Origin: Phaeodactylibacter sp.
Lineage (GTDB): Bacteria > Bacteroidota > Bacteroidia > Chitinophagales > Saprospiraceae
NCBI GenBank assembly: GCA_024103175.1
Contig: JAGFJE010000061.1
Location: 72 to 64,071 of the forward strand
DNA length: 64,000 bases
Direction of reading: 5' to 3'
Under the pieces are notes generated by a model. The model saw nothing but the letters and a program-made list of their open reading frames with translations. It was not told the DNA's origin and did not search any database. Of this stretch, positions 14,859-29,913 are shown piece by piece. A program made the position numbers and the translations under genes. The number at the start of each line of letters is the position of its first letter. The first letter of the stretch is position 1.

Positions 14859-17729
14859 TTAGAACTGCATCCCGATATGGAAATAGACCTGGCGGGAGCT
14901 CGGGAACGGCGTTACCTCGATGCCGGTAGACAGGCCGGTTCCCCCCTTGGTGGAAGTTTCCGGGTCGTAGCTGCTGTAGTCGGTCAGCGTCAGAAGGTTC
15001 CTTCCGGAAACGCCCAGGCGCAGGCGCTGCAGGGTATTGCTGAACTTGGGCAGGGTGTAGTACAGGCCGACCTCGCGGAGGCGGAAATAGGAGGCGTCTT
15101 CGACAAAGCCTTCCAGGTTTTCATACTCCCTGGGGGTGTTGCCGCCGATGTCCGTCAGGAGGCGGGAGAGGTTCAGCACATCGCCGCCCTGCTTCCAGTG
15201 GGCGAGGAAGTTGAAGTCGATGTTCTTGCCGATCTTGATCTCGTTGTACCATCCCAGCTGGAAGTCGGGTTCTACATCACCGATGGTTTCCGGGCCTTCA
15301 TCGTCGCTGCCTTTCAGTTGGGTGATGGGCTCGCCTTCTTCAACATAGAAGGTGCCCAGGCCGAGGCCGAAGGCCACGCCGGAAGGAACGAAAGGCGGAA
15401 CGCCCAGGCGGGTCACTTCCGAACGGTTGAACCAGAAGTTGACCATGGAGTTCCAGTTGAAGTTCTGGGTAGAAACCGGGTTGATGTTCAGCGATACTTC
15501 CAGGCCGCGGTTCTGCAGGTCGAAGTCGTTGCGGATCTCGTTATTGAAGCCTGTTGAAGAAGGAATGTCAAACAGGAAGAGCAGGTTCTGGACGTTGCGG
15601 ATGTAGTAGGTCAGCCCCAGGTTCAGTTTGTTGCCCAGGAAGCCGAGGTCGGTGCCGAATTCGATCTCTTCGGAGGTTTCCGGCTCGAGGTCGGTGCGGC
15701 CGAGGTTGCCGCCGGCGGAGACGCCTATCTGGCCGTTGATGTTGGTGCTGGCCAGAGAGGAGAACAGGGAGCCGAAGGTAGCGCTGCTACCCGTTTGGCC
15801 GTAAGCTACCCGCAGCTTGAACTGGTTGACGGCCGTGGAGTTCCAGAAGTCGAAGTTGGCGACGTTCAACGCCAGAGATGCCCTTGGGAAAGCGAAGAAC
15901 TTGTTGGGGTCGCCGTTGAGGCTCGACTTGTCGAAGCGCACGCCGACGGTGGCGATGACCTTGTCGTCCCAGTTGGCCTGCTCCTGGACCACCATACCGA
16001 ATTCTTCCTCGGTTTCAATGGCCTGGTCAATGTTCTGGGCGCCGCCCTGTGACAGGTTTATCTGCCCGGGCACCAGCTGAGTCGCCCGGTTCAGGATGAA
16101 GTTGCGGTCGAAATTGAGGTACGTCACACCGACCTGGGTGTTGAGGTTCAGGTTGCCGGCGGAGAAGTAATCCAGGATACCGAAGGCCTGGTAGTTGTAG
16201 TTCAGCAATTTGTTACGGCCTTCGCCGATGAAACCGTTGTTGGTACCCACCTGCGACTGGTGCGTTTCCGGAACGTAAACGGACGTCTCATTCAGCAGGA
16301 AGTCCAGGCCGGCGTTACCGACGAGCTTGAAGACGACATTATCCGACTGGAAGACGTTGTACTCGATGTTGGTTCCGGAGATGAGGCGGTTGTTGCGCTC
16401 ATCGTTCCGGGCCTGGTCGCGCACAAAGATGGGGTTGCCGGCGTAGTTCGGGTTGAAAGGATATACGCCCTGCTCGTTGGGGAAGAGGTCTACCCAGTCG
16501 CGGGTGAAGGCCAGGGTGTAGCCGTAGCTGAGGCCCCCTTCGTTCTCGTTGCCGGTAAAGCTTCGGGCGGCAAAGGAGTTGATGTAGTTGGTATTGACGC
16601 CGACCTTGATCTTGTCGGATACCTTGTGGTCTACGTTGAGGCGAATAGAGAACCGGTCGAATCCGGTGTTCTCGATAATACCTTCCTCGTCGCGGTAGCT
16701 GGTGTTGAAGTAGAAGGTGGTCTTGTCATTACCGCCGGAGATAGACAGGCGGGAGTCGCTGATGAAGCCGGTATTGCCGTAGATCTCTTCCTCATAGTTA
16801 AAGATCTTGCCGGCGGCCTGGGCCGCTTCGAACTTGGCGCGCTCGTCGGCGCCGAAAGCTTCTTCCACTTCGGCGGCGGTGTACTGGCGGCGGCCGACGT
16901 AGTTTTGAATGGTGTTCAGGCCGAGGTCCTGCTCGAAGCTGACCTTCGTCCTGCCGGCCGAACCCTGCTTGGTGGTGATGATTACCACACCGGCGTTGGC
17001 GCGGGTCCCGTAGATGGCGGCGGCGGAAGCCCCTTTAAGCACTTCGATGCTTTCGATGTCTTCCGGGTTGAGGTCGGCCAGGCGGTTGGAGGCCCCTTCC
17101 TCGGTGCCGGAGTTGGCGCCGGAGGCGAAGCGCTGGCCGCTGGGGATCTCTGCATTGGTGATGTACACCCCGTCGATGATGAACAGCGGCTGGTTGTTGC
17201 CATTGAGGGAAGACACCCCGCGCAGGCGCATAGCGATACCCCCTCCCGGGGCGCCGTTGCTCTGCACGATGTTCACGCCGGGAAGCTTGCCATAGAGGGC
17301 GCCGTCGACCGTTTGTTGTGTGGTCACTTCGGTGAGTTCCTTGCCGGAGACCGTAGCCACGGCATTGGCCAGGTTGGACCGCTTGATCCCGGTGGCCAGG
17401 CCGGTAACGACGATCTCCTCCAGGTTGGCGATGTCCTCCTCCAGGGTTACGCTGATATCCGTTTTAGACGAGGAGACCTCGGCTTCTTCCGGCTTGAAGC
17501 CCGTGTAGGAGAACAGGAGCGTGGCAGGGCCGCTACTAACATTAATGTTGAAATTGCCGTTAAAATCAGTAACGGTTCCCGTCGTAGTGCCTTTGACGAT
17601 GATGGAAACGCCGATCAGGGGTTCCCCGTTTTCGTTTTGCACGACACCACTTACAGTGTACTGCGCCATAGCTGCAGCGGAAATGAATAACATCGCTAAC
17701 AGCAGGCATGACTTGGTAAAGTACTTCAT
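14859..17729 (-). CDS. SusC/RagA-family TonB-dependent outer-membrane transporter
   Basis: 956 aa. N-terminal carboxypeptidase-regulatory-like domain (VSGVVQNENGEPLIGVSIIVKGTTTGTVTDFNGNF), plug domain, and terminal ...YFHIGMQF beta-barrel ending in F. Confidence 0.9.
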   Translation of the reverse strand: MKYFTKSCLLLAMLFISAAAMAQYTVSGVVQNENGEPLIGVSIIVKGTTTGTVTDFNGNFNINVSSGPATLLFSYTGFKPEEAEVSSSKTDISVTLEEDIANLEEIVVTGLATGIKRSNLANAVATVSGKELTEVTTQQTVDGALYGKLPGVNIVQSNGAPGGGIAMRLRGVSSLNGNNQPLFIIDGVYITNAEIPSGQRFASGANSGTEEGASNRLADLNPEDIESIEVLKGASAAAIYGTRANAGVVIITTKQGSAGRTKVSFEQDLGLNTIQNYVGRRQYTAAEVEEAFGADERAKFEAAQAAGKIFNYEEEIYGNTGFISDSRLSISGGNDKTTFYFNTSYRDEEGIIENTGFDRFSIRLNVDHKVSDKIKVGVNTNYINSFAARSFTGNENEGGLSYGYTLAFTRDWVDLFPNEQGVYPFNPNYAGNPIFVRDQARNDERNNRLISGTNIEYNVFQSDNVVFKLVGNAGLDFLLNETSVYVPETHQSQVGTNNGFIGEGRNKLLNYNYQAFGILDYFSAGNLNLNTQVGVTYLNFDRNFILNRATQLVPGQINLSQGGAQNIDQAIETEEEFGMVVQEQANWDDKVIATVGVRFDKSSLNGDPNKFFAFPRASLALNVANFDFWNSTAVNQFKLRVAYGQTGSSATFGSLFSSLASTNINGQIGVSAGGNLGRTDLEPETSEEIEFGTDLGFLGNKLNLGLTYYIRNVQNLLFLFDIPSSTGFNNEIRNDFDLQNRGLEVSLNINPVSTQNFNWNSMVNFWFNRSEVTRLGVPPFVPSGVAFGLGLGTFYVEEGEPITQLKGSDDEGPETIGDVEPDFQLGWYNEIKIGKNIDFNFLAHWKQGGDVLNLSRLLTDIGGNTPREYENLEGFVEDASYFRLREVGLYYTLPKFSNTLQRLRLGVSGRNLLTLTDYSSYDPETSTKGGTGLSTGIEVTPFPSSRQVYFHIGMQF

Positions 17730-17779
17730 ACTCTAGTGAGTTTAGATAAAAAATACTCTAGTGAGTTTAGATAAAAAAA
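17730..17779 (-). repeat. Tandem 25-bp duplication abutting the susC start codon
   Basis: ACTCTAGTGAGTTTAGATAAAAAAT (17730-17754) is repeated as ACTCTAGTGAGTTTAGATAAAAAAA (17755-17779). The first copy touches the ATG (17727-17729, minus strand). Confidence 0.9.
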
Positions 17780-18194
17780 GGTTGTTTGTTAACCAGTGGT
17801 TTTAATACAAATGGAGTAAACGTTTGTACGATTATTTGCGCGGCTTTACGGGGCATAGAATTTTCGTTTTCTTTGCCTGAAAAGAAGAGAATTCGCTAAT
17901 GGAGTTTGTTTGCGGAAGTTATAACATAGGAAGTTTCGTACAGGGGGTAAAGATAAAAATTTTCCCGATTATCCCATTCAGGAAATAATCATTTTCTGAT
18001 TTTATTGTCCGGCCGATAATTTTGTAAGCCTGGCTCTTTGATACGCCGATACACCCTACATTCAGGCCGGTTATTTTTCGAGGGTGTTTCAGGAGAAGTT
18101 TGGATTTCGGCCAAGTGAGGTGAAGAAGAGTTGATTAAGGCGGGTTGCGGGTTTACGAGCGGCCAGGCCTTTTCGCACCCCGCCAACATGCCCT

Positions 18195-19520
18195 CTACCC
18201 CCCCAGCCCTGCTTTCGGCTCCGGTATCCAGTGCCCGTGCCCGCCGGCCCTTTTGTCGTTAAATTCGGTAGGAGCTTTTCCGGAATCCATGTAGTCTTTC
18301 CAGCTTTCATGGGTTGAGCCGTCGTCCTTTCGCACCATAGTGATGCAGTTTTCCACCGGGCAGACCAGCGAGCAGAGGTTACAGCCCACACAATTTTCTT
18401 CAATAATAGCCGGTACGCGCCCCTGGCCGTTGCCGGGCAGGGCGATGGCCTGATGGGCGCCGTCTTCGCAGGCCGTATAGCAGAGCTGGCAGCCGATGCA
18501 GGTGTCGGCATTGATGGCGGCGATCACCTTGTACTTCAGGTTCAGGTTCTCCCAGGTAGTGACATTGGACACGGCCTTGCCGATGAAGTCGGGCAACTGC
18601 CCGAAGCCTTTTTCGTTCATGTACTCTTCCAGGCCGGCCAGCATCTCCCGTATGATGCCGAAGCCGTAATGCATCACGGCGGTGCACACCTGCACGTTGT
18701 TGGCGCCCAGGAGCATGTGTTCTACCGCGTCCCGCCAGTTCTCGATGCCGCCGATCCCGGAGATGGGGATATTCACGCCCTGGTGCTGAGCGCAGTTCTT
18801 AACCATGTTCAGGGCGATGGGTTTGACGGCGGGGCCGCAGTAGCCGCCGTTGGTGCTCTTCCCGTCGACGGTGGGGTAGGGGACGAACCGGTCGAGGTCG
18901 ACGCCCATCAGGCTCTGAATGGTGTTGATGAGGGAAATGGCGTCGGCGCCGCCCTTTGCTGCTGCGACGGCCGGCTCGGTGATGTCTGTGATATTGGGCG
19001 TCAATTTGACGATAACCGGCACGGTGGCCACTTCCTTCACCCATCCGGTGATGGTTTGGAGGACGGCCGGTTCCTGCCCGACGGCCGAGCCCATTCCCCG
19101 TTCGCACATGCCGTGCGGGCAGCCGAAGTTGAGCTCTACCCCGTCTGCTCCGGCGTTTTCGACATCCTTTACGATCTGATGCCATTCTTTCCGGGACTCC
19201 ACCATGAGGGAGGCCACTACGGCATGATCGGGGAAGTATTTCTTCACCTCCTCGATCTCCCGCAGGTTGTCGGCCAGGGGCCGGTCGGTGATCAGCTCGA
19301 TGTTGTTGAAGCCCACCATGCGGCTGCTCCGGTAATTGATGGCGCCATAACGACTGGAAGTATTGACGACGGGAATACCCAGGGTCTTCCATACGGCTCC
19401 GCCCCAGCCGGTCTCGAAGGCCTTCATGACCTGGTAGCCCGAATTGGTGGGCGGCGCCGAGGCCAGCCAGAAGGGGTTCGGGGAAAGGATGCCGGCGAGG
19501 TTGGCGGTTAGGTTTGGCAT
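18195..19520 (-). CDS. preA: NAD-dependent dihydropyrimidine dehydrogenase subunit PreA (DHOD-like FMN domain plus 2x[4Fe-4S])
   Basis: N-terminus LSPNPFWLASAPPTNSGYQVMKAFETGWGGAVWKTLG resembles E. coli PreA. C-terminal ferredoxin motifs CIGCQLCYTACEDG and CVGCNLCSLVCPVENC. Confidence 0.9.
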   Translation of the reverse strand: MPNLTANLAGILSPNPFWLASAPPTNSGYQVMKAFETGWGGAVWKTLGIPVVNTSSRYGAINYRSSRMVGFNNIELITDRPLADNLREIEEVKKYFPDHAVVASLMVESRKEWHQIVKDVENAGADGVELNFGCPHGMCERGMGSAVGQEPAVLQTITGWVKEVATVPVIVKLTPNITDITEPAVAAAKGGADAISLINTIQSLMGVDLDRFVPYPTVDGKSTNGGYCGPAVKPIALNMVKNCAQHQGVNIPISGIGGIENWRDAVEHMLLGANNVQVCTAVMHYGFGIIREMLAGLEEYMNEKGFGQLPDFIGKAVSNVTTWENLNLKYKVIAAINADTCIGCQLCYTACEDGAHQAIALPGNGQGRVPAIIEENCVGCNLCSLVCPVENCITMVRKDDGSTHESWKDYMDSGKAPTEFNDKRAGGHGHWIPEPKAGLGG

Positions 19521-19595
19521 GGTCTGTTTTTTTACGCCAGGTTTTTTGCCTGTAGCGTTGGTTTAAAAGTAAACTTTCGGTTTTTGCCCGGAGCA

Positions 19596-19715
19596 GTGTA
19601 CGGTGTACGGGGCTGGCAGCGGGCTTATTGATGTACGGTGTACGGGCTGGCTGTGGGCTCATTGGTGTACGGGGCTGGCTGCGAGCTTGGCTGTGTACGG
19701 TGTACGGAAGGGCCG
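19596..19715. repeat. About 3.5 tandem ~34-nt units rich in GTGTACGG
   Basis: GTGTACGGTGTACGGGGCTGGCAGCGGGCTTATTG / ATGTACGGTGTACGGGCTGGCTGTGGGCTCATTG / GTGTACGGGGCTGGCTGCGAGCTTGGCT / GTGTACGGTGTACGGAAGGGCCG. Confidence 0.85.
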
Positions 19716-19811
19716 TCGATTATTAAGTTATCCAATTTTTGATTGGAAGGTAGTCTTGTAAAGAATACCAACCAAGCCCATTTTGAACATCTTACAAGCC
19801 CCCAGGCTCCT

Positions 19812-19965
19812 TTCCGGCCCCGTCCACCGTACATGCCCCTGGCCTGTCCCCGGTTCGTACACCGTACACGCCCCTGACCCATCACGGCCCGCCCACGCCC
19901 GGGTTCCCTTCCGGCCCCGTCCACCGTACACGCCCCTGGCCTGTCCCCGGTTCGTACATCGTACA
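19812..19965. repeat. Two 57-nt direct repeats (19812-19868 and 19909-19965) rich in CCGTACA, inverse in orientation to the 19596-19715 array
   Basis: TTCCGGCCCCGTCCACCGTACA(T/C)GCCCCTGGCCTGTCCCCGGTTCGTACA(C/T)CGTACA. The copies differ at 2 positions with a 97-nt offset. A further CCCGTACATCGTACAC lies at 19986-20001. Confidence 0.9.
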
Positions 19966-20042
19966 AGCTTTAAGCCCCCGGATAGCCCGTACATCGTACA
20001 CTACATCAATAAAACTTCAATCAATATTTTCAATCTCCATTT

Positions 20043-21374
20043 TCACTTTGAACTGGATACATATTTATCAATCCCCCTGGCCGCCATCTTGCCCTCCGCC
20101 GCTGCGTTCACTACCTCTGCGCCTCCATTGACCGCGTCGCCGGCGGCGAAATACTTCGGGCGGGAAGTCTGGAAAGATTGAGGATTGACCTTAATGCAGC
20201 CCCGGCCGTCCTTTTCCAGGCTATCGATCAGGTTGAGGAATGCCGACTGTTTGGCCTGGCCGGTGGCCAGGATCACCATGTCGCAGGCCATCTCGAATTC
20301 ACTGCCCGGTATATGCTTTAATTTCCCGCCTTCATTCTGGGTCTTGATGAACCGTACGCCGCGTACCTTTTCTTCTCCCAGAATGGCCAGTGGCGCGGCG
20401 TTGAACAGCCCCATGACGCCTGCCGACCGGGCCAGGCCGTATTCAAATGCATACGCCCGCATCTCCTCCTTGGAGCGGCGGTAGGCCACGGTTACGGCTT
20501 CTGCTCCCAGGCGGGCCGATTCGGAGGCGGCGTCCATGGCGGTATTGCCCCCGCCGATGACGATCACGCGGCGGCCTACCTCGAGGGCCAAGGGCATCAG
20601 CTTTACCTGTTCGATGAACTCGGTGGCGCCGATGCAGCCAGCCAGCCCTTCGCCCTCGAGGTTGAGCGCCTGGGTAGGGCCAAGGCCGACGCCCAGCAGG
20701 ATGGCGGCGTAATCGCGCTCCAGGGCAGCTATCTGTTCTTTGGTTTTGACCGGCTGCTTGTAGTGAACCCGGAATTGGAATTGTTCCTGCAGGTAATTGA
20801 TCTCCTCCAGGACGTCCTCGTTGGTTACCTTGTAGGGGGCACAGCCGTAGATGGCCAGTCCGGAGGGGTGGCTTTTGGCCTCAAAGATGTCCACCTCGTA
20901 TCCCAGCAGCCGCAATTCGCAGGCGCAGGAGATGCTGGCCGGCCCGGCGCCGATAATGGCTATATGGTACCCATTAGTCGGGCCCGGCTCGTAGAGTTTC
21001 CGGCCCTGGCGGATCATGTCGGCGGCGGCGTAGCTCTGCAGCCGCCCGATCTCGATGGGCTTTACATCCTGCAGGTTGTATACGCAGGCGCCCTCGCAGA
21101 GCACTTCCGTAGGGCACACCTTGCCGCAGATGTTCCCGAAGTAATTGGAATCGTAAATGGTGCGGGCGGCCCCTTCCAGGTTGCCGGTATGGATCTGCCG
21201 GATGAACAGGGGGATGTCGATGCCGGTCGGGCAGGCCTTCACGCAGGGCGCGTCGTAGCAGAACAGGCAGCGGGAGCTTTCGTAGTACGCCATGGTGGCA
21301 TTCATGTACGGCTTGATCTGTTCGAAGCTGGTTTCGAGGTCTTTTTCGGTGGTGGGTGTCTGGTATTCGGCCAT
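20043..21374 (-). CDS. preT: NAD-dependent dihydropyrimidine dehydrogenase subunit PreT (glutamate-synthase small-subunit-like)
   Basis: N-terminal Fe-S motifs (CLFCYDAPCVKACPTGIDIP, CGKVCPTEVLCEGAC). Rossmann motif IAIIGAGPASISCA. Second dinucleotide motif VIVIGGGNTAMDAA. Confidence 0.85.
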   Translation of the reverse strand: MAEYQTPTTEKDLETSFEQIKPYMNATMAYYESSRCLFCYDAPCVKACPTGIDIPLFIRQIHTGNLEGAARTIYDSNYFGNICGKVCPTEVLCEGACVYNLQDVKPIEIGRLQSYAAADMIRQGRKLYEPGPTNGYHIAIIGAGPASISCACELRLLGYEVDIFEAKSHPSGLAIYGCAPYKVTNEDVLEEINYLQEQFQFRVHYKQPVKTKEQIAALERDYAAILLGVGLGPTQALNLEGEGLAGCIGATEFIEQVKLMPLALEVGRRVIVIGGGNTAMDAASESARLGAEAVTVAYRRSKEEMRAYAFEYGLARSAGVMGLFNAAPLAILGEEKVRGVRFIKTQNEGGKLKHIPGSEFEMACDMVILATGQAKQSAFLNLIDSLEKDGRGCIKVNPQSFQTSRPKYFAAGDAVNGGAEVVNAAAEGKMAARGIDKYVSSSK

Positions 21375-21420
21375 TAATTATGGGTTTAACTTGAATCGGG
21401 TGATGTCTATGAGTAGTCAA

Positions 21421-21544
21421 ATTTGCGATTTATGACGTGTGATTTATGAGGTTTGATTTGTGCCATACAAGGGCTGCTCCAGGATAGCTGCCACACTGCC
21501 GGCACATCAAAAATCAAACATCGCACATCAAATATCACAAATAT
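21421..21544. repeat. Opposed word arrays (GATTTATGA-type vs CACATCAAA-type) forming a long imperfect inverted repeat
   Basis: The left arm 21421-21462 and the reverse complement of the right arm 21503-21544 align over ~42 nt with roughly three-quarters identity by eye. The loop is ~40 nt. Confidence 0.7.
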
Positions 21545-21557
21545 ACAAGAGTAATGC

Positions 21558-22430
21558 TCACAACTCCGTCAGCTTCCCGTACGTCTCCGGCCGGCGGTCG
21601 CGGAAGAACTGCCAGGTGGAGCGCACCTCTTCGATCATATCGAGGTCGAACTCGGCCACCAGCAGTTCGTCCTGGCCTTCGGAAGCCTGAGCGAATATCT
21701 GCCCGCGCGGGTCCACGAAGTAGGAAGAGCCGTAGAAGCGGCCGATGTTCCAGGGGGCTTCCGTGCCCACCCGGTTGATGCAGCCCATGAAGTAGCCATT
21801 GGCGGCCGCGTGGGCCGGCTGCTCCAGCTTCCACAGGTACTGCGACAGGCCGGCCACCGTGGCGGAGGGGTTGTAGACGACCTCGGCGCCGTTCAGGCCC
21901 AGGATGCGCGCCCCGTCCGGGAAGTGGCGGTCGTAGCAGATGTAGACGCCCACCCTGGCGTAGCGGGTCTCGAATACCGGGTAGCCCAGGTTGCCGGGCT
22001 TGAAGAAGAACTTCTCCCAGAAGCCCGAGGTGTGGGGGATATGGTTTTTACGGTATTTTCCCAGATAGGTTCCATCCGCATCGATCACGGCGGCGGTGTT
22101 GTACAGCACGCCCGGCTGTTCCTTCTCAAAAATGGGCACGATCATCACCATCTGGTGCTTTCTGGCGTACTCCGCCATGCGCTCCACCGTTGGGCCGGGT
22201 ATGGATTCAGCCGAGGCGTACCATTTGGCGTCCTGCCCCGGGCAGAAATAGGGCGTGTTGAATATCTCCTGCAGGCAGAGGATCTGTACGCCCTGCTTGC
22301 CCGCATCTTCGATGAAGGGAATGTGCTTCTGCACCATGGCCTCTTTGATCTCTTCTATGGTGCCCTGCCCTTCGGTCTTGGCGAGGCTCATCTGGATCAG
22401 TCCGGATTTTATTTTTCTTGGCATAGACAA
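21558..22430 (-). CDS. Beta-ureidopropionase / N-carbamoyl-beta-alanine amidohydrolase (nitrilase-superfamily type)
   Basis: 290 aa. CN-hydrolase hallmarks: LCLQEIF (Glu), YRKNHIP (Lys), VYICYDRHFP (Cys). Sits between preT and dihydropyrimidinase. Confidence 0.8.
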   Translation of the reverse strand: MSMPRKIKSGLIQMSLAKTEGQGTIEEIKEAMVQKHIPFIEDAGKQGVQILCLQEIFNTPYFCPGQDAKWYASAESIPGPTVERMAEYARKHQMVMIVPIFEKEQPGVLYNTAAVIDADGTYLGKYRKNHIPHTSGFWEKFFFKPGNLGYPVFETRYARVGVYICYDRHFPDGARILGLNGAEVVYNPSATVAGLSQYLWKLEQPAHAAANGYFMGCINRVGTEAPWNIGRFYGSSYFVDPRGQIFAQASEGQDELLVAEFDLDMIEEVRSTWQFFRDRRPETYGKLTEL

Positions 22431-22449
22431 TAATTGTTATTCAATATCT

Positions 22450-22532
22450 TTATTCATTTTGATTCAGAATATATTGTGGTGTATCGTACATAAAATTCAA
22501 TTGAAGAAATCGCCTGGAATCAGAAGCACCTC
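22450..22532 (-). pseudogene. Remnant of a toxin-C-terminus / immunity-N-terminus junction (truncated duplicate of 24010-24059)
   Basis: Minus-strand reading gives ...EVLLIPGDFFN* (stop 22497-22499), then MYDTPQYILNQNE* (22491 down to 22450). The intact locus has ...HIPLDDITDSFLNNFFN* followed by MYDTPQYILNQINSN.... There is 40-nt perfect identity between 22466-22505 and 24015-24054. Confidence 0.7.
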
Positions 22533-22559
22533 CTATTCAATGGCCCTGCTCTAACGGCC

Positions 22560-23072
22560 TCAGCGGGAGGGAGATTGCCCACTATAAAATGGATTTATTG
22601 AATCATCTGTTTTAATGGCTTTCTCAGTAATATATGAGACTACTTTCAATAAATGATCAAGGTCTACCTCGCTATCAGGGATTTTCAGATCATAGCCATT
22701 TGATGCTCCGTTATCAAGTTTTTTCAAGTCTTCCTTTATACTTTCTACTAAGGGCATCAATCTTTCCTTAACAACCAATTTCCAGTCTTTATCTATTTGC
22801 ATTAATACTCCTATGTTGCTATACGGTTTTGTGGAAATTAATTTTAACCAGTCCGCCCTGAATTCGCCAAACAAGCTCATAGATTGCGCTGATAAATTGT
22901 TTAGAAGCCAATCCTGGTGCAGAAAATCTTTATTCATGATTTCAGTACCGTTGATCAATTCGTCAAATGCGGAGTCATAGTCAAACGATAACCTGGCCAA
23001 ATCATAATAAAGGTTTTTAATTAACCTTAGTTCCATAATATTGTGGAGCAAGGGTTTATCTGTTTGCCTCAT
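22560..23072 (-). CDS. Hypothetical protein, paralog 3 of 3 (candidate immunity protein)
   Basis: 170-aa AT-rich ORF with a 17-nt overlap onto the upstream paralog. A 66-aa ungapped hand alignment with the 23531-24040 product gives 24 identities (W..N.LS..S..L..EF...W.......PY........ID..W...VKE.L.PL.ES...D....D). Confidence 0.6.
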   Translation of the reverse strand: MRQTDKPLLHNIMELRLIKNLYYDLARLSFDYDSAFDELINGTEIMNKDFLHQDWLLNNLSAQSMSLFGEFRADWLKLISTKPYSNIGVLMQIDKDWKLVVKERLMPLVESIKEDLKKLDNGASNGYDLKIPDSEVDLDHLLKVVSYITEKAIKTDDSINPFYSGQSPSR

Positions 23073-23496
23073 AATTATTCAATTTTTTATAAAGGCTATC
23101 GACAGACCTGATAATATCTTCATCCGAAGGCCTGTCAATTTCTTGCTTGGGACATTTTTCATAATCAATGCCGCGCGCTAAAAGATCTTTCTCAATGCTA
23201 TCAAGCAAAGGCAATTGATTTTGGTCTAAAAGATCTCTATAGGATACATCTATCAATTTAAGTGCTGTGCTGTTTGAGTAGGAAACGTTCTTATAATAGT
23301 CCTGGAGTTGGTAAATAAGCCTATTATACAGGTCCACTGTTTTTGATGAGAAAATCGTAGAATCGCCATCCAGAATATAAGCGAAATCCTCCATAAGGGA
23401 CATTATTGTGGATTCATAGAATTCATCGAATCGCCTCAGCCGGCATATTTCGGAATAGAAAAGCAAAGCATGATTAATTTCAGGCTTCAGGTTCAT
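23056..23496 (-). CDS. Hypothetical protein, paralog 2 of 3 (candidate immunity protein)
   Basis: 146-aa ORF. It shares LPLLDSIEKDL (cf. VPLIESFQRDF) and the tail PSDEDIIRSVDSLYKKLNNY (cf. PTNQDVLQRVSTLYNLLINH, 7/20 identical) with paralog 1. Confidence 0.6.
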   Translation of the reverse strand: MNLKPEINHALLFYSEICRLRRFDEFYESTIMSLMEDFAYILDGDSTIFSSKTVDLYNRLIYQLQDYYKNVSYSNSTALKLIDVSYRDLLDQNQLPLLDSIEKDLLARGIDYEKCPKQEIDRPSDEDIIRSVDSLYKKLNNYEANR

Positions 23497-23530
23497 AGTT
23501 CTTACTATCTGAATACCCCAATAATAGTTA

Positions 23531-24040
23531 TCATTTTACCTCTTTATTCATTACCCCATGATTGATGAGCAGATTATATAAGGTTGATACCCTTTGAAGG
23601 ACATCTTGATTTGTTGGTTGATATACAACTTCGCTTAGATCACCTTTAAAATAGTCCATATCCGTAGTTTCAAAATCACGTTGGAAACTTTCGATTAGCG
23701 GCACGAGCTTTTCCTTTACAATACTATGCCATGTTGGATCAATAAGCACGAATATTTCATCTTCACCATACGGATAACTTTTTCGGTAATTTCTCCATTG
23801 ATTTTCAAATTCTTCAAGCAATTTGAAAGATCTTGAACTAAGAATATTTGCGCCCCATTTCTCATTTATAAGAGGAGTCAGCTTATATTCCATGTATAAA
23901 TCTTCGAGTGCACAGGAATAGGCCATTTTTTCCTGTTTAACTATTTTGATTAAATAGTCGTAAATATTTAACAATATTCTTTTTTCTTCCTCTAAATTCG
24001 AGTTGATCTGATTTAGAATATATTGTGGTGTATCGTACAT
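23531..24040 (-). CDS. Hypothetical protein, paralog 1 of 3 (candidate cognate immunity protein)
   Basis: ATG at 24040 lies 5 nt after the upstream stop. The ORF-track TTG start at 24049 would overlap that stop. No signal peptide. Apparently helical and acidic. Confidence 0.6.
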   Translation of the reverse strand: MYDTPQYILNQINSNLEEEKRILLNIYDYLIKIVKQEKMAYSCALEDLYMEYKLTPLINEKWGANILSSRSFKLLEEFENQWRNYRKSYPYGEDEIFVLIDPTWHSIVKEKLVPLIESFQRDFETTDMDYFKGDLSEVVYQPTNQDVLQRVSTLYNLLINHGVMNKEVK

Positions 24041-24045
24041 AAAAT

Positions 24046-24978
24046 TCAATTGAAAAAATTGTTTAAAAATGAATCTGTAATATCATCCAAAGGAATGTGA
24101 GCTGCTGGAGAATTTCCAGGAACTGGGTTTCCATTGATGTCGATGAAACTGTTGCCTTTATGGCATTTTACATATTTTACATGTTGAGAGGGCCACGGAG
24201 AATTGGGATTAGCATCCATGATCCTTAAGTGATGATTACTCGTTTTCTCCCAATATAGCCCTTGTCCATACGCCAATTTCGATCCCGGCAGATCCTTCCA
24301 GCTCTTCGGCATCTTATTGAGTATCCTCTGCCCGCCGGCTGTTGTAAAGAGCCTGTTCCACAGTACAAAAACTTTTTTCACTTTCTTCCACGCATCCCGG
24401 ATATTATCGGCCTTCCTTATCACCTTGATCACCTCATCTCCGGGCACTATGGAGCCGACGATGCCCACAATTCCCCAAAAGTAGCTCCCGGCCTGGAAAT
24501 CATTATAGGCGCCGACCAGGTCTCCTATCCCAGGTGTAAACTCCAGTAAGATCGGGAACAACTCTTCCTGAAACACTTCCATTGCAAGCTGCCACAGATA
24601 AGGGTCATCCGGATCCTCGCCCACTTCTTCCATGAAAGCCTCGTACATTACTGCCGCAGCAAGGTACACATCCGCTCCATATTGATGTATAAACGCTTCA
24701 ATGTCTACATTGGCCGCAGCGTAATTGGGATAGTTGGCGAGGAGGTATTCGTGTTTAAGCCTGGCATATACACCCAATGCCACCAATACCTCTCCGTTAT
24801 GCTTACAACTTTGCGAAGCCGAAAGTTTTTCTTCGTAAGCCGACTCGGCCTGGAAGCCCAGTAAGGAGGGGTAGCCCGCCTCGTTTCCTACTACCGAATA
24901 ACTGATAAGCACTATACCACAGAGCAGCCACCCTCTTAGCATGTTTTTAGTTTTCAGGATTTGATGTTTACTTTTCAT
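24046..24978 (-). CDS. Signal-peptide protein with a pre-toxin-TG-like segment and an unassigned ~120-aa C-terminal module (candidate polymorphic toxin)
   Basis: N-terminal hydrophobic signal (MLRGWLLCGIVLISYSVVG). LLEFTPGIGDLVGAYNDFQAGSYFWGIVGIVGSIVPG resembles my recollection of the PT-TG motif. The C-terminal tip is ...SNHHLRIMDANPNSPWPSQHVKYVKCHKGNSFIDINGNPVPGNSPAAHIPLDD. Hand G+C counts fall from 55-57% (24421-24660) to 35-37% (24061-24180) within the gene. Confidence 0.55.
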   Translation of the reverse strand: MKSKHQILKTKNMLRGWLLCGIVLISYSVVGNEAGYPSLLGFQAESAYEEKLSASQSCKHNGEVLVALGVYARLKHEYLLANYPNYAAANVDIEAFIHQYGADVYLAAAVMYEAFMEEVGEDPDDPYLWQLAMEVFQEELFPILLEFTPGIGDLVGAYNDFQAGSYFWGIVGIVGSIVPGDEVIKVIRKADNIRDAWKKVKKVFVLWNRLFTTAGGQRILNKMPKSWKDLPGSKLAYGQGLYWEKTSNHHLRIMDANPNSPWPSQHVKYVKCHKGNSFIDINGNPVPGNSPAAHIPLDDITDSFLNNFFN

Positions 24979-25018
24979 TCATCTATCATGAGATGCTTTT
25001 AAGCGCCTCTGACAAACA

Positions 25019-25066
25019 CTGCCGGGTTGTTCTGAGGGGAGCCTGGCCAAAACCCGGCAGGTTAAG
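25019..25066. repeat. Hairpin element, copy 1 (CTGCCGGGTT ... AACCCGGCAG GTTAAG)
   Basis: 10-bp perfect stem 25019-25028 / 25051-25060. The 20-mer CCAAAACCCGGCAGGTTAAG (25047-25066) is identical to 26878-26897. Confidence 0.8.
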
Positions 25067-25081
25067 CATCTAACAATCAAG

Positions 25082-25134
25082 CAATATAGCCATATAACAA
25101 TATAGCCATATAACAATATAGCCATATAACAATT
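25082..25134. repeat. 3.3 tandem copies of the 16-mer CAATATAGCCATATAA
   Basis: Perfect copies at 25082-25097, 25098-25113 and 25114-25129, plus a partial copy. The array starts 5 nt past the dihydropyrimidinase stop. Confidence 0.95.
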
Positions 25135-25138
25135 ACCC

Positions 25139-26521
25139 CTACACCACCTTCGACGCCTTCCCCCTCCTCACAAACTGCCCATACCCCTTCTTAATTTTCA
25201 CCTCCCCCTTATCAATAGCCACTTCCCCCCTCAATATCACCGTCTCACATTTGCCCTTCACCTTCCAGCCCTCGTAGGCGGAGTAGTCCACGTTCATGTG
25301 GTGGGTTTTTGCCGAAAGCTCGTGTTGCTTTTCCGGGTCGAAGATCACCAGGTCGGCGTCGGAGCCGGCGGCGATGCAGCCTTTCCGGGGGTACATGCCA
25401 AAGATCTTTGCCGGGTTGGTGGAGGTCACTTCCACGTACTTATTGGCGCTGATGCGGCCCTTCTCCACGCCTTCCGACCAGAGCAGTTCCATGCGGTGCT
25501 CGATGGCGGGGTGGCCGTTGGGAATTTTCGAAAAATCATCCTTGCCCATCATCTTCTGCTCCCATTTGAAGGGGCAGTGGTCGGTGGCTACGACCTGGAC
25601 CAGCCCCTGGTTGAGGCCGGCCCAGAGCGTCTCCTGGTCTTTTTTCTGGCGTAGGGGCGGGCTCATCACCCACTTTGCGCCTTCGGGGTTCTTCTCGTAG
25701 AGGGAGGCGTCGAGCAGCAGGTACTGGATGCAGGTTTCGACAAATACCTTCTGGTTGCGGTAGGTGGCCTCGCGCACCTGATTGAGGGCGCCCTCGCAGG
25801 TGAGGTGCACGATGTAGGCGGGCACGCCGGTGTAGTGGGCCAGGTCGACAAACCGCCCGGAAGCCTCGGCCTCAGTTACTTCCGGCTGCGACAAGTAGTG
25901 GTACAAGGGGGAGAGCTTGCCTTCCGCCCGGTGTTGGGCGATCAGGCTGTCGATCATATCGCCGTTGGTGGCGTGCACCGTCACCATGCCGCCCCGTTCT
26001 TTCACCTCCTGCATCAGGCCCACCATCTGGCCGTCGTCGATCATCAGGGCGCCCTTGTAGGCCATGAAGGCCTTGAAGGAGGTGATGCCTTCCTTTTCGA
26101 TCAGTTGCCCCACCTCCTTTCGCGTGGATTCATTGAAATCCGTGACCGCCATGTGGAAGGAGTAATCGCTGAAGCAGTTGCCGTCGGAGCGGCCGCGCCA
26201 GGCGTCCAGGGCGTGGTAGAGGGGCTTGCCTTGAGTCTGTAGTACGAAGTCGATCACCATGGTGGTGCCGCCGTGCAGGGCCGCCCGCGTGCCCGTCTCG
26301 TAGCTGTCGCTGGAAAAGGCGCCCATAAAGGGCATGTCGAGGTGCACGTGGGGGTCGATGCCGCCGGGAAAGATGATCTTGCCCGTGGCGTCGATGGTTT
26401 GGCTGGCGCGCACGTTCAGGTTCTTGCCGATGGCCTGAATGCGTTCGCCTTCTATATAGATGTCGGCATGATAATCGTCTGAAGCGGTGAGTATCCGTGC
26501 GTTTATGATAAGGATGGACAT
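25139..26521 (-). CDS. Dihydropyrimidinase (D-hydantoinase family)
   Basis: 460 aa cyclic amidohydrolase: GGIDPHVHLDMPFMG metal-binding HxH motif, carboxylated-Lys region FKAFMAYKG, ATDHCPF. Confidence 0.9.
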   Translation of the reverse strand: MSILIINARILTASDDYHADIYIEGERIQAIGKNLNVRASQTIDATGKIIFPGGIDPHVHLDMPFMGAFSSDSYETGTRAALHGGTTMVIDFVLQTQGKPLYHALDAWRGRSDGNCFSDYSFHMAVTDFNESTRKEVGQLIEKEGITSFKAFMAYKGALMIDDGQMVGLMQEVKERGGMVTVHATNGDMIDSLIAQHRAEGKLSPLYHYLSQPEVTEAEASGRFVDLAHYTGVPAYIVHLTCEGALNQVREATYRNQKVFVETCIQYLLLDASLYEKNPEGAKWVMSPPLRQKKDQETLWAGLNQGLVQVVATDHCPFKWEQKMMGKDDFSKIPNGHPAIEHRMELLWSEGVEKGRISANKYVEVTSTNPAKIFGMYPRKGCIAAGSDADLVIFDPEKQHELSAKTHHMNVDYSAYEGWKVKGKCETVILRGEVAIDKGEVKIKKGYGQFVRRGKASKVV

Positions 26522-26848
26522 AGGTTTTACCTCTTGGTGTTAAGCGTTGATGAGCTGAATTCGTCTAAATTTAGTTCAAAATTCCTAAAACTACTAAAAG
26601 GAGGGCGAGGAAAAGCTCAACAGCCTAATGTTCAGATGGAGTAAGAACGTGAGGGCTACCCGTCTAAGGTTAGACAGCAGCAGAAGGTAGAACCCAGGAG
26701 TCTTAGGGAATGCGCCACCTGGGGCGCCCCGCCAGGGTGCGGTTTTCCACCGTGGCCTGGCTTAAGGAGCAAAAAGGACGATATCCGGCATCTCCGATAA
26801 ACCTGCCTGCCCGCCTGGCTAGGCGCCAGCCGGCCTGGCAGGCAGGCG

Positions 26849-26897
26849 CTGCCGGGTTATGCCAAATAGGGCCAACCCCAAAACCCGGCAGGTTAAG
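26849..26897. repeat. Hairpin element, copy 2, overlapping the NCS1 permease stop codon
   Basis: Stem CTGCCGGGTT (26849-26858) / AACCCGGCAG (26882-26891). The shared 20-mer is at 26878-26897, and the permease stop (TAA) is the TTA at 26893-26895. It is preceded by a second GC-rich hairpin, CCTGCCTGCC (26802-26811) / GGCAGGCAGG (26837-26846). Confidence 0.8.
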
Positions 26898-28362
26898 GCT
26901 GCTTTTTCAATTGCATCAACGCCCAATAAAGCCCGAAAGCCACGAAAAACGTCACAAACCAGGCGTAGGAATACAAGTCCATCCAGAACGCACCAATGCT
27001 TTCCGCCGGTATGAGGTAAACCGTGGCCAAAAAACCGGGAAGCACCGGCAGCAGGCTCACCGCAAAAGCGATCCACGCCCGCTGGTTCCACCCCTTGTAG
27101 ATGCCGCCCAGCCGGAACAGCTGCGCCAGGTCGAGCTCCGTCTTGCGGATGATGTAGTAATCGCAGATCATCACGCCGGCCAGAGCGCCCAGCAGGGCCG
27201 AATAGGCGATCAGCCAGACGAAGATGTAGCCGTGCGGGTCGGCCAGCAGTTTCCACGGAAAAATGATGATGCCGATGATACCGGTGATGTAGCCGCCCAT
27301 GCGGAAGCTGATCTTGCTGGGCATGATGTTGGCGATGCTGTTGGCCGGCGCCACTACGTTGGCGGCAATATTGGTGGAAAGCGTGGCGATGGTCAGCCCG
27401 ATCATAGACAGGGCCACCACCAGCGGGGACTCGAAGCGCGCCAGCAGGGCCACCGGGTCCCAGATGGCCTCTCCGAAGATGATCACCGTGGCGCTCGTCA
27501 CCGCAATGCCGATGAAGGAGAACAATACCATCGTGCCGGGCAGCCCGATGGCCTGGCCGATGATCTGGTCTTTCTGCGTTTTGGCGTAGCGTGTGAAGTC
27601 GGGAATGTTGAGGCTCAGGGTGGCCCAGAAGCCCACCATTGCGGTCAGGCCGGGCCAGAAGATCTTCCAGAATTGCACGTCGGAGCCTTTGGCCAATACG
27701 TAGGACGCATCCAGGATCTGGCTCATGGAGCCCACCCGGAACCACGCCCAGAGCAGCAAGCTCACCCCGATCAGCAGCAGAAAGGGCGCCGCCCAGTTTT
27801 CCAGTTGCTTGATCGACTCGATGCCCCGGTAGATGATCCACATGTTCATCAGCCAGAACAGGAGGAAGCAGAAGAGCTGCCCCAGGTTGAGGCCGATGAG
27901 GCCGCCCAGGTAGGGGCTGCCGGCCAGTCCCGGCCATACGATGAGCAGCAACTGGTAGATGGCCGCCCCGCCGATCCAGGTCTGAATGCCGAACCAGCCG
28001 CAGGCGACCAGCCCCCGGAGCAGGGCCGCCAGCACCGCGCCGTCCACCCCGAAGTTGAGCCGCAGGAATACCGGCAGCGGGATGCCGTACTTGGTGCCCA
28101 CATGGGCGTTGAGGATCATGGGAATGAGCACGATGACATTGCCGAGCAGAATGGTGAGCAGCGCCTGCCACCAGTTCATGCCCTGCTCGATCAAGCTACT
28201 GGCCAGCATATAGGTGGGAATGCATACGGCCATGCCCACCCAGATGGCGGCGATGTTCCAGCGGTTCCAGGTGCGCTCCGCCGCCGGCACCGGGGCGAAG
28301 TCCTCACTGTACAGAGGCGAATCGCTCACGTCCTCTGTAAGCTCAATAATTTCTTCTTTCAT
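26893..28362 (-). CDS. NCS1-family nucleobase:cation symporter (uracil/cytosine/allantoin-type permease)
   Basis: 489 aa polytopic membrane protein. N-terminus NSPLYSEDFAPVPAAERTWNRWNIAAIWVGMAVCIPTYML is typical of NCS1 transporters. Embedded in the pyrimidine cluster. Confidence 0.85.
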   Translation of the reverse strand: MKEEIIELTEDVSDSPLYSEDFAPVPAAERTWNRWNIAAIWVGMAVCIPTYMLASSLIEQGMNWWQALLTILLGNVIVLIPMILNAHVGTKYGIPLPVFLRLNFGVDGAVLAALLRGLVACGWFGIQTWIGGAAIYQLLLIVWPGLAGSPYLGGLIGLNLGQLFCFLLFWLMNMWIIYRGIESIKQLENWAAPFLLLIGVSLLLWAWFRVGSMSQILDASYVLAKGSDVQFWKIFWPGLTAMVGFWATLSLNIPDFTRYAKTQKDQIIGQAIGLPGTMVLFSFIGIAVTSATVIIFGEAIWDPVALLARFESPLVVALSMIGLTIATLSTNIAANVVAPANSIANIMPSKISFRMGGYITGIIGIIIFPWKLLADPHGYIFVWLIAYSALLGALAGVMICDYYIIRKTELDLAQLFRLGGIYKGWNQRAWIAFAVSLLPVLPGFLATVYLIPAESIGAFWMDLYSYAWFVTFFVAFGLYWALMQLKKQP

Positions 28363-28434
28363 GCTTAATTGGTTGATTCGTCGATTTGTGAATTGGGTTG
28401 ATTAGGAGCAGGCCCGGGGAAGAACGCCGGTGGC

Positions 28435-28500
28435 AACCTAATCAACTCAATCAACCTAATCAACTCAATCAACCTAATCAACCTAATCAACCTAATCAAC

Positions 28501-28510
<10 letters not shown>
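28435..28510. repeat. 8.4 tandem copies of a 9-mer (AACCTAATC / AACTCAATC) overlapping the aminotransferase stop codon
   Basis: Units read at 28435, 28444, 28453 ... 28498. The gene's last codons and stop (GTGGTTGATTAG on the minus strand) are part of the array. An inverse partner GGGTTGATTAGG lies at 28395-28406. Confidence 0.9.
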
Positions 28511-29823
<1,313 letters not shown>

Positions 29824-29837
29824 GGTTTAGATTGAAT

Positions 29838-29913
29838 GAAGGAATGATTGAATTAAGGAATGATTGAATTTTACCCGGAAGAGCCTATGGCGAAGACGGG
29901 GAAGGAATGATTG
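29838..29913. repeat. Three copies of the GAAGGAATGATTG word
   Basis: GAAGGAATGATTGAATT (29838), AAGGAATGATTGAATT (29855), GAAGGAATGATTGG (29901). AAGACGGGGAAGGAATGA (29893-29910) recurs reverse-complemented at 203-220. Confidence 0.85.

Follow-up and report, generated by a model that had tools for sequence, protein, structure and literature searches.

What are four low-GC genes doing in the middle of a pyrimidine-catabolic operon? The question is raised by a contig of Phaeodactylibacter sp. (JAGFJE010000061.1), of which we analysed a 64-kb stretch (the window) together with related contigs and homologs, numbered here as loci L001-L095 and as proteins with a P number (such as P0005). Between the genes for dihydropyrimidinase (dht) and beta-ureidopropionase (bup), the window contains four open reading frames (ORFs), all on the minus strand, that encode proteins of 310, 169 (or 172), 146 and 170 amino acids (aa); we refer to the first as the large protein and to the others as S1, S2 and S3. 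We consider it quite probable that these genes form a polymorphic toxin-immunity cassette that an ancestor of a narrow Phaeodactylibacter/Lewinellaceae clade acquired at the dht-bup site and passed on by vertical inheritance. An earlier note on this DNA had proposed a toxin/poly-immunity locus. The C-terminal toxin module, the adjacency of the small genes and the pairing of toxin tips with small-gene types all speak for that proposal; what has to be revised is the age of the insertion, which is old and not recent. The parts of the cassette are the following (positions are those of the window).

24979..25138, minus strand: dht-toxin intergenic spacer (tandem repeat of 16 nt in 3.2 copies, a hairpin, and a leader that is also conserved in L001 and L004)
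24046..24978, minus strand: large protein, candidate toxin precursor, 310 aa (ORF with a signal-peptide-like N-terminus, a pre-toxin middle part and a PT7-like C-terminal domain)
24886..24978, minus strand: residues 1-31 of the large protein, a basic n-region and a hydrophobic helix (16-31) by hydropathy, presumed Sec signal peptide or signal anchor
24379..24627, minus strand: residues ~118-200 of the large protein, conserved Gly-rich pre-toxin region (invariant or near-invariant alignment columns)
24049..24366, minus strand: residues 205-310 of the large protein, putative C-terminal toxin domain of a divergent PT7-like clade (profile search, fusions, PT7 similarity)
23531..24040, minus strand: S1, 169 aa (172 aa from a TTG at 24049), presumed cognate immunity (immediately downstream of the toxin gene)
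23056..23496, minus strand: S2, 146 aa, presumed orphan immunity (paralogy; a 79% identical ortholog directly follows the L001 toxin gene)
22560..23072, minus strand: S3, 170 aa, presumed orphan immunity (paralogy; an 84% identical ortholog follows the L004 toxin gene)
22429..22510, minus strand: scar in the S3-bup spacer (the toxin-3'/S1-start junction in a second copy, then a stretch resembling the 3' end of S1)

The C-terminal part of the large protein (residues 200-310) is basic, with an isoelectric point (pI) of 9.7, and AlphaFold2 (AF2) models residues ~240-310 as several beta strands and a C-terminal helix (pLDDT 87-94), the confidence being low elsewhere in the protein. Using a profile built from eight Lewinellaceae-type C-terminal domains, we searched 1.84 billion cluster representatives (E <= 0.001) and retrieved 206 of them, in proteins of 41-1926 aa, every listed match placing the domain at the very end of the protein. 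According to Pfam results for 103 of these representatives, the fusion partners include Phage_Mu_F (5 proteins), RHS_repeat (5), PT-HINT (4), PT-TG (4), RHS (2) and WXG100_2 (1), and three further long members contain DUF637 (CdiA-like), Phage_portal_3 and DUF6443. Because the domain is always C-terminal and is fused elsewhere to RHS, CdiA-like, PT-HINT, PT-TG, MuF, portal and WXG100 domains, which are standard delivery and pre-toxin modules, we assign it, on the evidence of sequence, to the polymorphic-toxin modules.

The loci that carry this protein differ mostly at its tip: the middle region is 82-91% identical among loci, whereas the C-terminal region is 42-59% identical between three toxin types. 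Within a type the C-terminal region is well conserved (96% identity between the window and L010, and 90% between L004 and P0005). The family of small proteins has three subtypes, and the toxin types and the small genes that follow them are arranged as listed below.

Window: window-type toxin tip, then S1, S2 and S3
L010: window-type tip (96% identical), then an S1-type and an S3-type gene
L001: L001-type tip, then an S2-type and an S1-type gene
L004: L004-type tip, then an S3-type gene only
L095 (P0005): L004-type tip (90% identical to that of L004), then an S3-type gene only

The three toxin types correspond to three types of first gene, and two of the pairings recur in independent contigs. 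Since each toxin type has a different first small gene, it is most simply assumed that each toxin has its cognate immunity encoded by the gene that comes first behind it (S1 in the window), and S2 and S3 are probably orphan immunities directed against the toxins of sister lineages, which would give the window one cognate and two orphan immunities.

As the earlier note had seen, S1, S2 and S3 are mutually paralogous (BLASTP E-values of 8e-14, 5e-12 and 3e-5). They are acidic (pI 4.7-5.1; 4.9 for S1) and without a hydrophobic segment, and the AF2 model of S1 is all-alpha (pLDDT 77.6, pTM 0.72). Their family is small, with 22 proteins in a collection of 5.8 billion proteins, and the members with a named source come from metagenome-assembled genomes (MAGs) of Lewinellaceae/Phaeodactylibacter. 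In all loci examined (the window, L001, L004, L010-L012, L095, L006-L008, L009 and L005), the toxin domain has an S-family gene as its immediate downstream neighbor, which also holds for loci outside the pyrimidine operon. What is left of the toxin in L006-L008 is the 3' part of a >649-aa protein that an IS3 element has split, and L009 and L005 also carry transposases and other toxin-like pairs. Given this context, on which the case rests, S1-S3 are most likely immunity proteins.

The large protein has 11 homologs in the same collection of 5.8 billion proteins; those with a named source are again from Lewinellaceae/Phaeodactylibacter MAGs, the others being metagenomic. It occupies the same position in L001, L004 and L010. 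Its N-terminus looks like a signal peptide, as the earlier note had also proposed: hydropathy shows basic residues and, behind them, a hydrophobic segment that spans residues 16-31 (Kyte-Doolittle maximum of 2.06 in a 15-residue window; pI 9.75 for residues 1-40), and AF2 places a helix at residues 11-31. Residues 41-199 are acidic and helical and end in the conserved motif EFTPGIGDL.GAYNDF..G.YFWG..GIVG..VPGDE. A hidden Markov model (HMM) of residues 118-200 finds this Gly-rich region in ~13 cluster representatives, where it immediately precedes the C-terminal domain. We note that the longer toxin relatives P0010 (513 aa) and P0011 (388 aa), as well as the one in L009, contain Gly/Ser-rich linkers (GGSGSGSGG...), and that the N-terminus of P0010 is lipoprotein-like (..LWASCENDQ), with acidic residues past the Cys that resemble the surface-export signal of Bacteroidota. 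The P0010 N-terminus hints that some family members could be surface lipoproteins.

What the domain might do is suggested by its similarity to a characterised toxin. A phmmer search with the large protein against PDB sequences gave a single match (E = 0.002, residues 216-297), the 95-residue chain 8owu_B, which was deposited as 'Transposase'. This chain corresponds, at 85-99% identity, to the very end of large plasmid proteins of the Bacillus cereus group, named 'pre-toxin TG domain-containing protein', and has no match in a phage collection. One of the Bacillus proteins (963 aa) contains choline-binding repeats, Pfam PT-TG at 795-854 and then the domain, with a 117-aa ORF next to it; in the Bacillus cereus-group relatives, a small ORF follows each toxin gene. 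By BLASTP, residues 141-296 of the large protein align with residues 796-960 of the 963-aa protein (E = 8e-8), collinear across the PT-TG region and the C-terminal domain. The Bacillus C-terminal domain matches many shared representatives (e.g. P0143 at 9e-11 and P0039 at 7e-8), and P0039 matches the profile of the window clade at 5e-31, so the window clade and the Bacillus domain, which matches the PT7 domain of Nachmias et al., are linked transitively through shared representatives such as P0039.

Nachmias et al. (bioRxiv 10.1101/2021.10.19.465003) describe PT7 as a toxin domain with a new fold, which comes from Bacillus cereus and occurs in Firmicutes and Proteobacteria. It acts as a non-specific, Mg2+-dependent endo-DNase that is sensitive to EDTA; its D37A mutant was crystallised with the immunity protein PIM7, and mutation of D37 and H47 abolished toxicity in vivo. 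The wild-type domain degrades rRNA as well (bioRxiv 10.64898/2026.07.31.742022). Position 54 of 8owu_B is Ala where the native Bacillus protein has Asp, which after subtraction of a 17-residue tag is residue 37, and a His is found at the position expected for H47. Because of its Bacillus cereus-group origin, its chain length, the D-to-A change at residue 37 and the His at H47, we took 8OWU to be the PT7-PIM7 structure. In an alignment of 129 sequences of the domain family (residues are numbered as in the large protein), R252 (R33 of PT7) is invariant and H294 (H73 of PT7) is present in 128 of the 129, and P224, W227, G240, D280, G283, N284, I295 and P296 are highly conserved. The domain is best described as a divergent PT7-like clade, for which cleavage of nucleic acids may reasonably be inferred.

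A number of results weigh against the toxin-immunity reading or against parts of it, and we present them together. The relationship to PT7 is remote, as the clade profile matches 8owu_B at E = 0.044 only. The identification of 8OWU as the PT7(D37A)-PIM7 structure, though probable from origin, chain length and the D-to-A change, is undocumented: a literature search for the code 8OWU returned no document that ties it to the PT7 paper. Both residues that are essential for the toxicity of PT7 are replaced in the alignment of 129 sequences, D37 by A256 (Gly in 92 and Ala in 26 sequences, the loop alignment near D37 being uncertain) and H47 by Y269 (Tyr in 113 and His in 15), and for this reason the chemistry of the clade may differ from that of PT7. 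Modelling and structure comparison had been recommended in the earlier note: the C-terminal domain was modelled confidently and S1 was modelled as all-alpha, and neither model had a significant match in the PDB. For S1, Foldseek found nothing below E = 0.6, and the same was true of the full-length model of the large protein, which was searched untrimmed with two thirds of it at low confidence and did not retrieve 8owu; at such confidence this outcome carries no information on the toxin.

The small proteins are likewise without a known counterpart in the searches made. A profile search of the PDB with their family gave chance matches only, and none of the sequence and structure searches tied them to a known immunity family or fold. 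With the 117-aa Bacillus protein (presumed PIM7), hhalign gave a probability of 0.1%, and the secondary structure predicted for the small proteins, which is all-alpha, differs too. For the middle of the large protein, the Pfam PT-TG model (PF14449) had no match at E <= 10 to the protein, to its middle segment or to 10 homologs, and hhalign of the pre-toxin region against a four-sequence PT-TG alignment gave a probability of 22%; the HMM of residues 118-200, in turn, does not match the Bacillus PT-TG region. With the Pfam model silent and an hhalign probability of 22%, we regard membership of the middle region in PT-TG, which it resembles in motif and position, as not established. As for delivery, the large protein contains no type VI secretion system (T6SS), type IX secretion system (T9SS), contact-dependent inhibition (CDI) or RHS module, and no delivery domain or secretion system was identified for it.

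Searches of family libraries, also recommended in the earlier note, yielded no named family and none of a housekeeping kind. Pfam, NCBIfam and PADLOC scans of all four cassette proteins gave no meaningful match, and a Pfam scan of 11 homologs of the large protein and 23 homologs of the small proteins found nothing.

How the cassette sits among its neighbors can be seen from the genes on both sides, which were identified from their orthologs in related contigs, 77-97% identical and assigned to the Pfam families one would expect (the dht and bup orthologs are 91-97% identical and carry Pfam Amidohydro_1 and CN_hydrolase, respectively).

29823-28501, minus strand: aminotransferase, neighbor, pyrimidine-catabolic gene set
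28362-26893, minus strand: NCS1-type permease, neighbor, pyrimidine-catabolic gene set
26521-25139, minus strand: dihydropyrimidinase (dht), directly upstream flank of the cassette
22430-21558, minus strand: beta-ureidopropionase (bup), directly downstream flank of the cassette
21374-20043, minus strand: preT-like gene, neighbor, pyrimidine-catabolic gene set
19520-18195, minus strand: preA-like gene, neighbor, pyrimidine-catabolic gene set

The layout and composition described in the earlier note were recovered in full: four co-oriented ORFs between dht and bup (with a 5-nt gap between the large gene and S1, a 34-nt gap between S1 and S2, and a 17-nt overlap of S2 and S3), a low-GC insert, a compositionally foreign 3' tip of the large gene, and no integrase or transposase among the ORFs listed for 18195-29823. 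GC content is 0.30-0.38 across 22400-24200 and ~0.60 in the flanks, and 23001-24000 is the lowest-GC kilobase of the window (0.343; the next lowest has 0.483, and the window mean is 0.566). Within the large gene, the part that encodes residues 67-229 has a GC of 0.50 and a GC at third codon positions (GC3) of 0.58, falling to 0.39 and 0.35, respectively, for residues 230-310; GC3 of the flanking genes is 0.83-0.84. A second, smaller low-GC patch (0.36-0.40) is found at 17600-18050, downstream of preA.

The ORFs are real genes, because the ratio of nonsynonymous to synonymous substitution rates (dN/dS) between orthologs is 0.16-0.21 (0.17 for S2 and 0.16-0.21 for S3; the flanking genes have 0.03-0.09). 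The synonymous divergence also dates the insertion: dS of the orthologous S genes is 0.50-0.67 and that of the flanking genes 0.37-0.80. Since the two are equal, we read the array as an old insertion that predates the split of these genomes and was passed on vertically, with differential loss, as a set of functional genes. Recent horizontal acquisition was rejected on the same comparison.

To see how widely the cassette is distributed, we compared the dht-bup gap in 80 Bacteroidota species genomes that have a close dht homolog. The order dht then bup is the rule among them, usually with 40-500 nt in between, and two species only carry the cassette (L015, which is the L004 contig, and L016, which is the L001 contig), the other 78 being without it. 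In the closest relative that lacks the cassette (dht 83% identical), the gap measures 54 nt. The synteny comparison that the earlier note had proposed gives the following picture: the cassette is found at the same dht-bup site in three related Phaeodactylibacter/Lewinellaceae genomes (L001, L004 and L010) and is absent from the 78 other species, and its low GC is retained in L001 and L004, so that host-like composition in all related operons is not what is observed. In L001, bup is present at 12035-12898 (tblastn, 91% identical) with no gene called there, which may reflect a frameshift or an omission in gene calling.

The dht-bup site of L010-L012 has received a further insertion (L010 6117-9339), which holds a helix-turn-helix (HTH) controller, two type II methyltransferases and a 414-aa protein without a family match that is presumably the restriction enzyme. 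This insertion trims the toxin gene to 200 aa, with the loss of the N-terminus, and an S1-type and an S3-type gene remain. The case lends itself to the explanation that the cassette is a decaying relic, in which the toxin is no longer exported or active and the immunity genes alone are maintained against toxin-bearing relatives. In other assemblies, too, many family members are fragmentary or split by IS elements or frameshifts, and the S genes are under purifying selection. The toxin ORFs of the window, L001 and L004 tell against it, as they are full length with an intact N-terminus, a middle region conserved at 82-91%, and R252 and H294 in place. We regard decay of the toxin as an unlikely account of the window.

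Traces of rearrangement are found at the ends of the arrays. A 51-nt direct repeat (96% identical) links 22460-22510 with 24009-24059, and a 30-nt repeat (77% identical) links 22429-22458 with 23523-23552, so the stretch between S3 and bup holds a copy of the junction between the toxin and S1. L001 has an analogous 68-nt junction copy (91% identical) at the distal end of its array. By analogy, such junction copies at distal array ends can be identified as scars of recombination, such as are known from arrays of orphan modules. An ancestral cyclic array (S1-S2-S3-S1...) behind the gene orders and the scars fits the window, L001, L004 and L010, and is speculative.

The spacers of the locus are rich in repeats. 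In the spacer between dht and the toxin gene, the 16-nt tandem repeat (3.2 copies) occupies 25082-25133, and a hairpin with arms at 25051-25060 and 25019-25028 has a folding energy of -22.8 kcal/mol with a z-score of only -0.9, which is no evidence for a terminator; the fold of the S3-bup spacer (z = +0.75) says nothing on transcription, and a promoter/terminator scan returned counts equal to the level of shuffled sequences. Other spacers of the operon also contain short tandem repeats, perfect or nearly so like the one after dht: 9 nt x8.6 at 28434-28510 (between the aminotransferase and permease genes) and 16 nt x2.6 at 29830-29870 (upstream of the aminotransferase gene). The preA/preT spacer (19596-20000) is dense with GTGTACGGTGTACGG motifs in both orientations and includes a 71-nt direct repeat (19801-19871 and 19898-19968, 92% identical). 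GGTGTAT-type short repeats related to these motifs lie just after the dht stop in L004 and L010, and both may belong to a family of intergenic repeat elements.

It is plausible that the cassette is co-transcribed with the pyrimidine operon, which, as the earlier note had suggested, would tie its expression to the supply of pyrimidines. One could imagine on this basis a 'kill and eat' loop, in which pyrimidines induce toxin and catabolism together, the nuclease toxin frees nucleic acids from neighboring cells, and the immunity array defines which sister lineages are spared; we think such a loop has a small chance of being right. In other genomes, genes of no relation to the cassette occupy the dht-bup gap: gaps of 600-1500 nt with unrelated ORFs, usually with GC below that of the flanks, were observed in L018, L019, L022, L026, L029, L031, L035, L036, L040, L041, L047, L055, L058 and L088, the cargo including what we take by eye to be GxxExxY-type, Uma2-type and nucleotidyltransferase-type ORFs. 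It seems that insertions land in this gap repeatedly. This cargo weakens a functional reading of the position, which looks, from the genomes compared, like a historical accident rather than functional coupling.

The same observations bear on the explanation that the large protein is a scavenging nuclease and the small proteins are barnase-barstar-like inhibitors, so that extracellular DNA or RNA would feed PreT/PreA, Dht and Bup and the small proteins would guard the producer. It would account for a cassette that runs in the direction of the operon and has stayed in the dht-bup gap of four genomes, for a domain related to a DNase/rRNase, for the signal-peptide-like N-terminus and for acidic, inhibitor-like paralogs. 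We nevertheless find it quite improbable, as other proteins of this domain family carry RHS, CdiA-like, PT-HINT, MuF and WXG100 modules (tools of antagonism), and as three variants, each with its own type of inhibitor, plus extra unmatched inhibitors point to strain discrimination and not to nutrition; besides, the module is found outside the clade in loci unrelated to pyrimidine metabolism, the dht-bup gap carries unrelated cargo elsewhere, and 78 of the 80 species do without the cassette. Finally, an intracellular toxin-antitoxin (addiction) module or another selfish element without a role between cells would suit a gene set that is small, closely spaced and low in GC and has no housekeeping homologs, and is made highly improbable by the gene order (toxin first, then several partner genes), the hydrophobic, signal-like N-terminus of the toxin, the attachment of its domain family to extracellular delivery modules, and a PADLOC scan without a match.

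For the polymorphic toxin-immunity cassette, which we prefer, the parts suggest the following course of events. The large protein would be a compact toxin precursor, composed of a Sec signal peptide or anchor, an acidic helical region with the Gly-rich pre-toxin motif, and a basic toxin domain of ~105 residues. The toxin would be exported and then delivered into target cells, where its domain would cleave nucleic acid in the cytoplasm of the competitor via a conserved set of Arg, His, Asp and Asn residues, as the PT7 family leads one to expect. The acidic all-alpha paralogs would bind and block the toxin domain as immunities, with S1 neutralising the resident variant, and S2 and S3 countering two variants of sister lineages.

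The three toxin variants and three immunity types across sister genomes are a compact natural test set for cognate specificity and orphan immunity, and the locus demonstrates that cassettes of this sort can persist for long inside a core catabolic operon with their foreign base composition retained. Should transcription indeed be coupled to the availability of pyrimidines, the locus would be a clear case of nutrient-gated bacterial antagonism.

The kind of system, a polymorphic toxin with an immunity array, is known; new are the parts and the unusual, long-lived position in an operon. The parts in question are a branch of the recently described PT7 nuclease superfamily in Bacteroidota, with neither of the two residues that were mutated in the original PT7 work, an all-alpha family of candidate immunities, and a Gly-rich pre-toxin region that is invisible to the Pfam PT-TG model. 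Compared with PT7/PIM7, the window has the same plan of a short C-terminal toxin domain with a small gene directly downstream, and the similarity extends across the whole domain (shared R33/R252, D59/D280, N63/N284 and H73/H294, P..W and G motifs); where the Bacillus homolog has its domain after PT-TG, the window has a Gly-rich motif in the corresponding position. The two differ in that PT7 has D37 and H47 whereas the window clade has Ala/Gly and Tyr, and in the partner, which for PT7 is the 117-aa protein after the Bacillus gene and here is an unrelated all-alpha family of 146-170 aa. PT7 hosts are Firmicutes and Proteobacteria and the window host is a diderm Bacteroidota; PT7 proteins carry choline-binding repeats or LXG N-terminally, whereas the window protein has a signal-peptide-like N-terminus.

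A second point of comparison is given by the 'PT-TG toxin' and 'PT-TG singleton' groups, which occur in monoderm and diderm phyla, lack a known trafficking domain and have an unknown secretion route (Becerra Soto et al., mSystems 2026, PMC13483458). These groups and the window share a short protein with a Gly-rich pre-toxin motif and a C-terminal toxin. The window protein scores nil with the Pfam PT-TG model, and a survey such as PMC13483458 would miss such proteins; judged by its sequence, it would be a Bacteroidota analogue of the PT-TG toxin/singleton proteins.

The broadest comparison is with polymorphic toxin systems that have orphan immunity. The window has in common with them a C-terminal tip that diverges sharply behind conserved N-terminal and middle portions, a presumed cognate immunity gene directly downstream together with toxin-less immunity paralogs, a GC content below that of the host, and scars that repeat the toxin-3'/immunity-5' junction. 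It differs in its very small toxin, in having no recognised delivery domain and no recombinase or mobile element, in its age, the array being old and vertically inherited and not a recent acquisition, and in its location inside a catabolic operon. Polymorphic toxin systems were reportedly described by Zhang, Aravind et al. in 2012, and acquired interbacterial defence (AID) islands of Bacteroidales are said to have been described by Ross et al. in 2019. With no recombinase ORF and with S-gene dS equal to that of the flanks, the window does not belong with the mobile immunity islands (AID/rAID). Orphan modules of CDI/Rhs systems likewise count among the systems with orphan immunity genes or poly-immunity arrays, and the array of the window, one presumed cognate immunity followed by two probable orphans, is a new example of this known kind.

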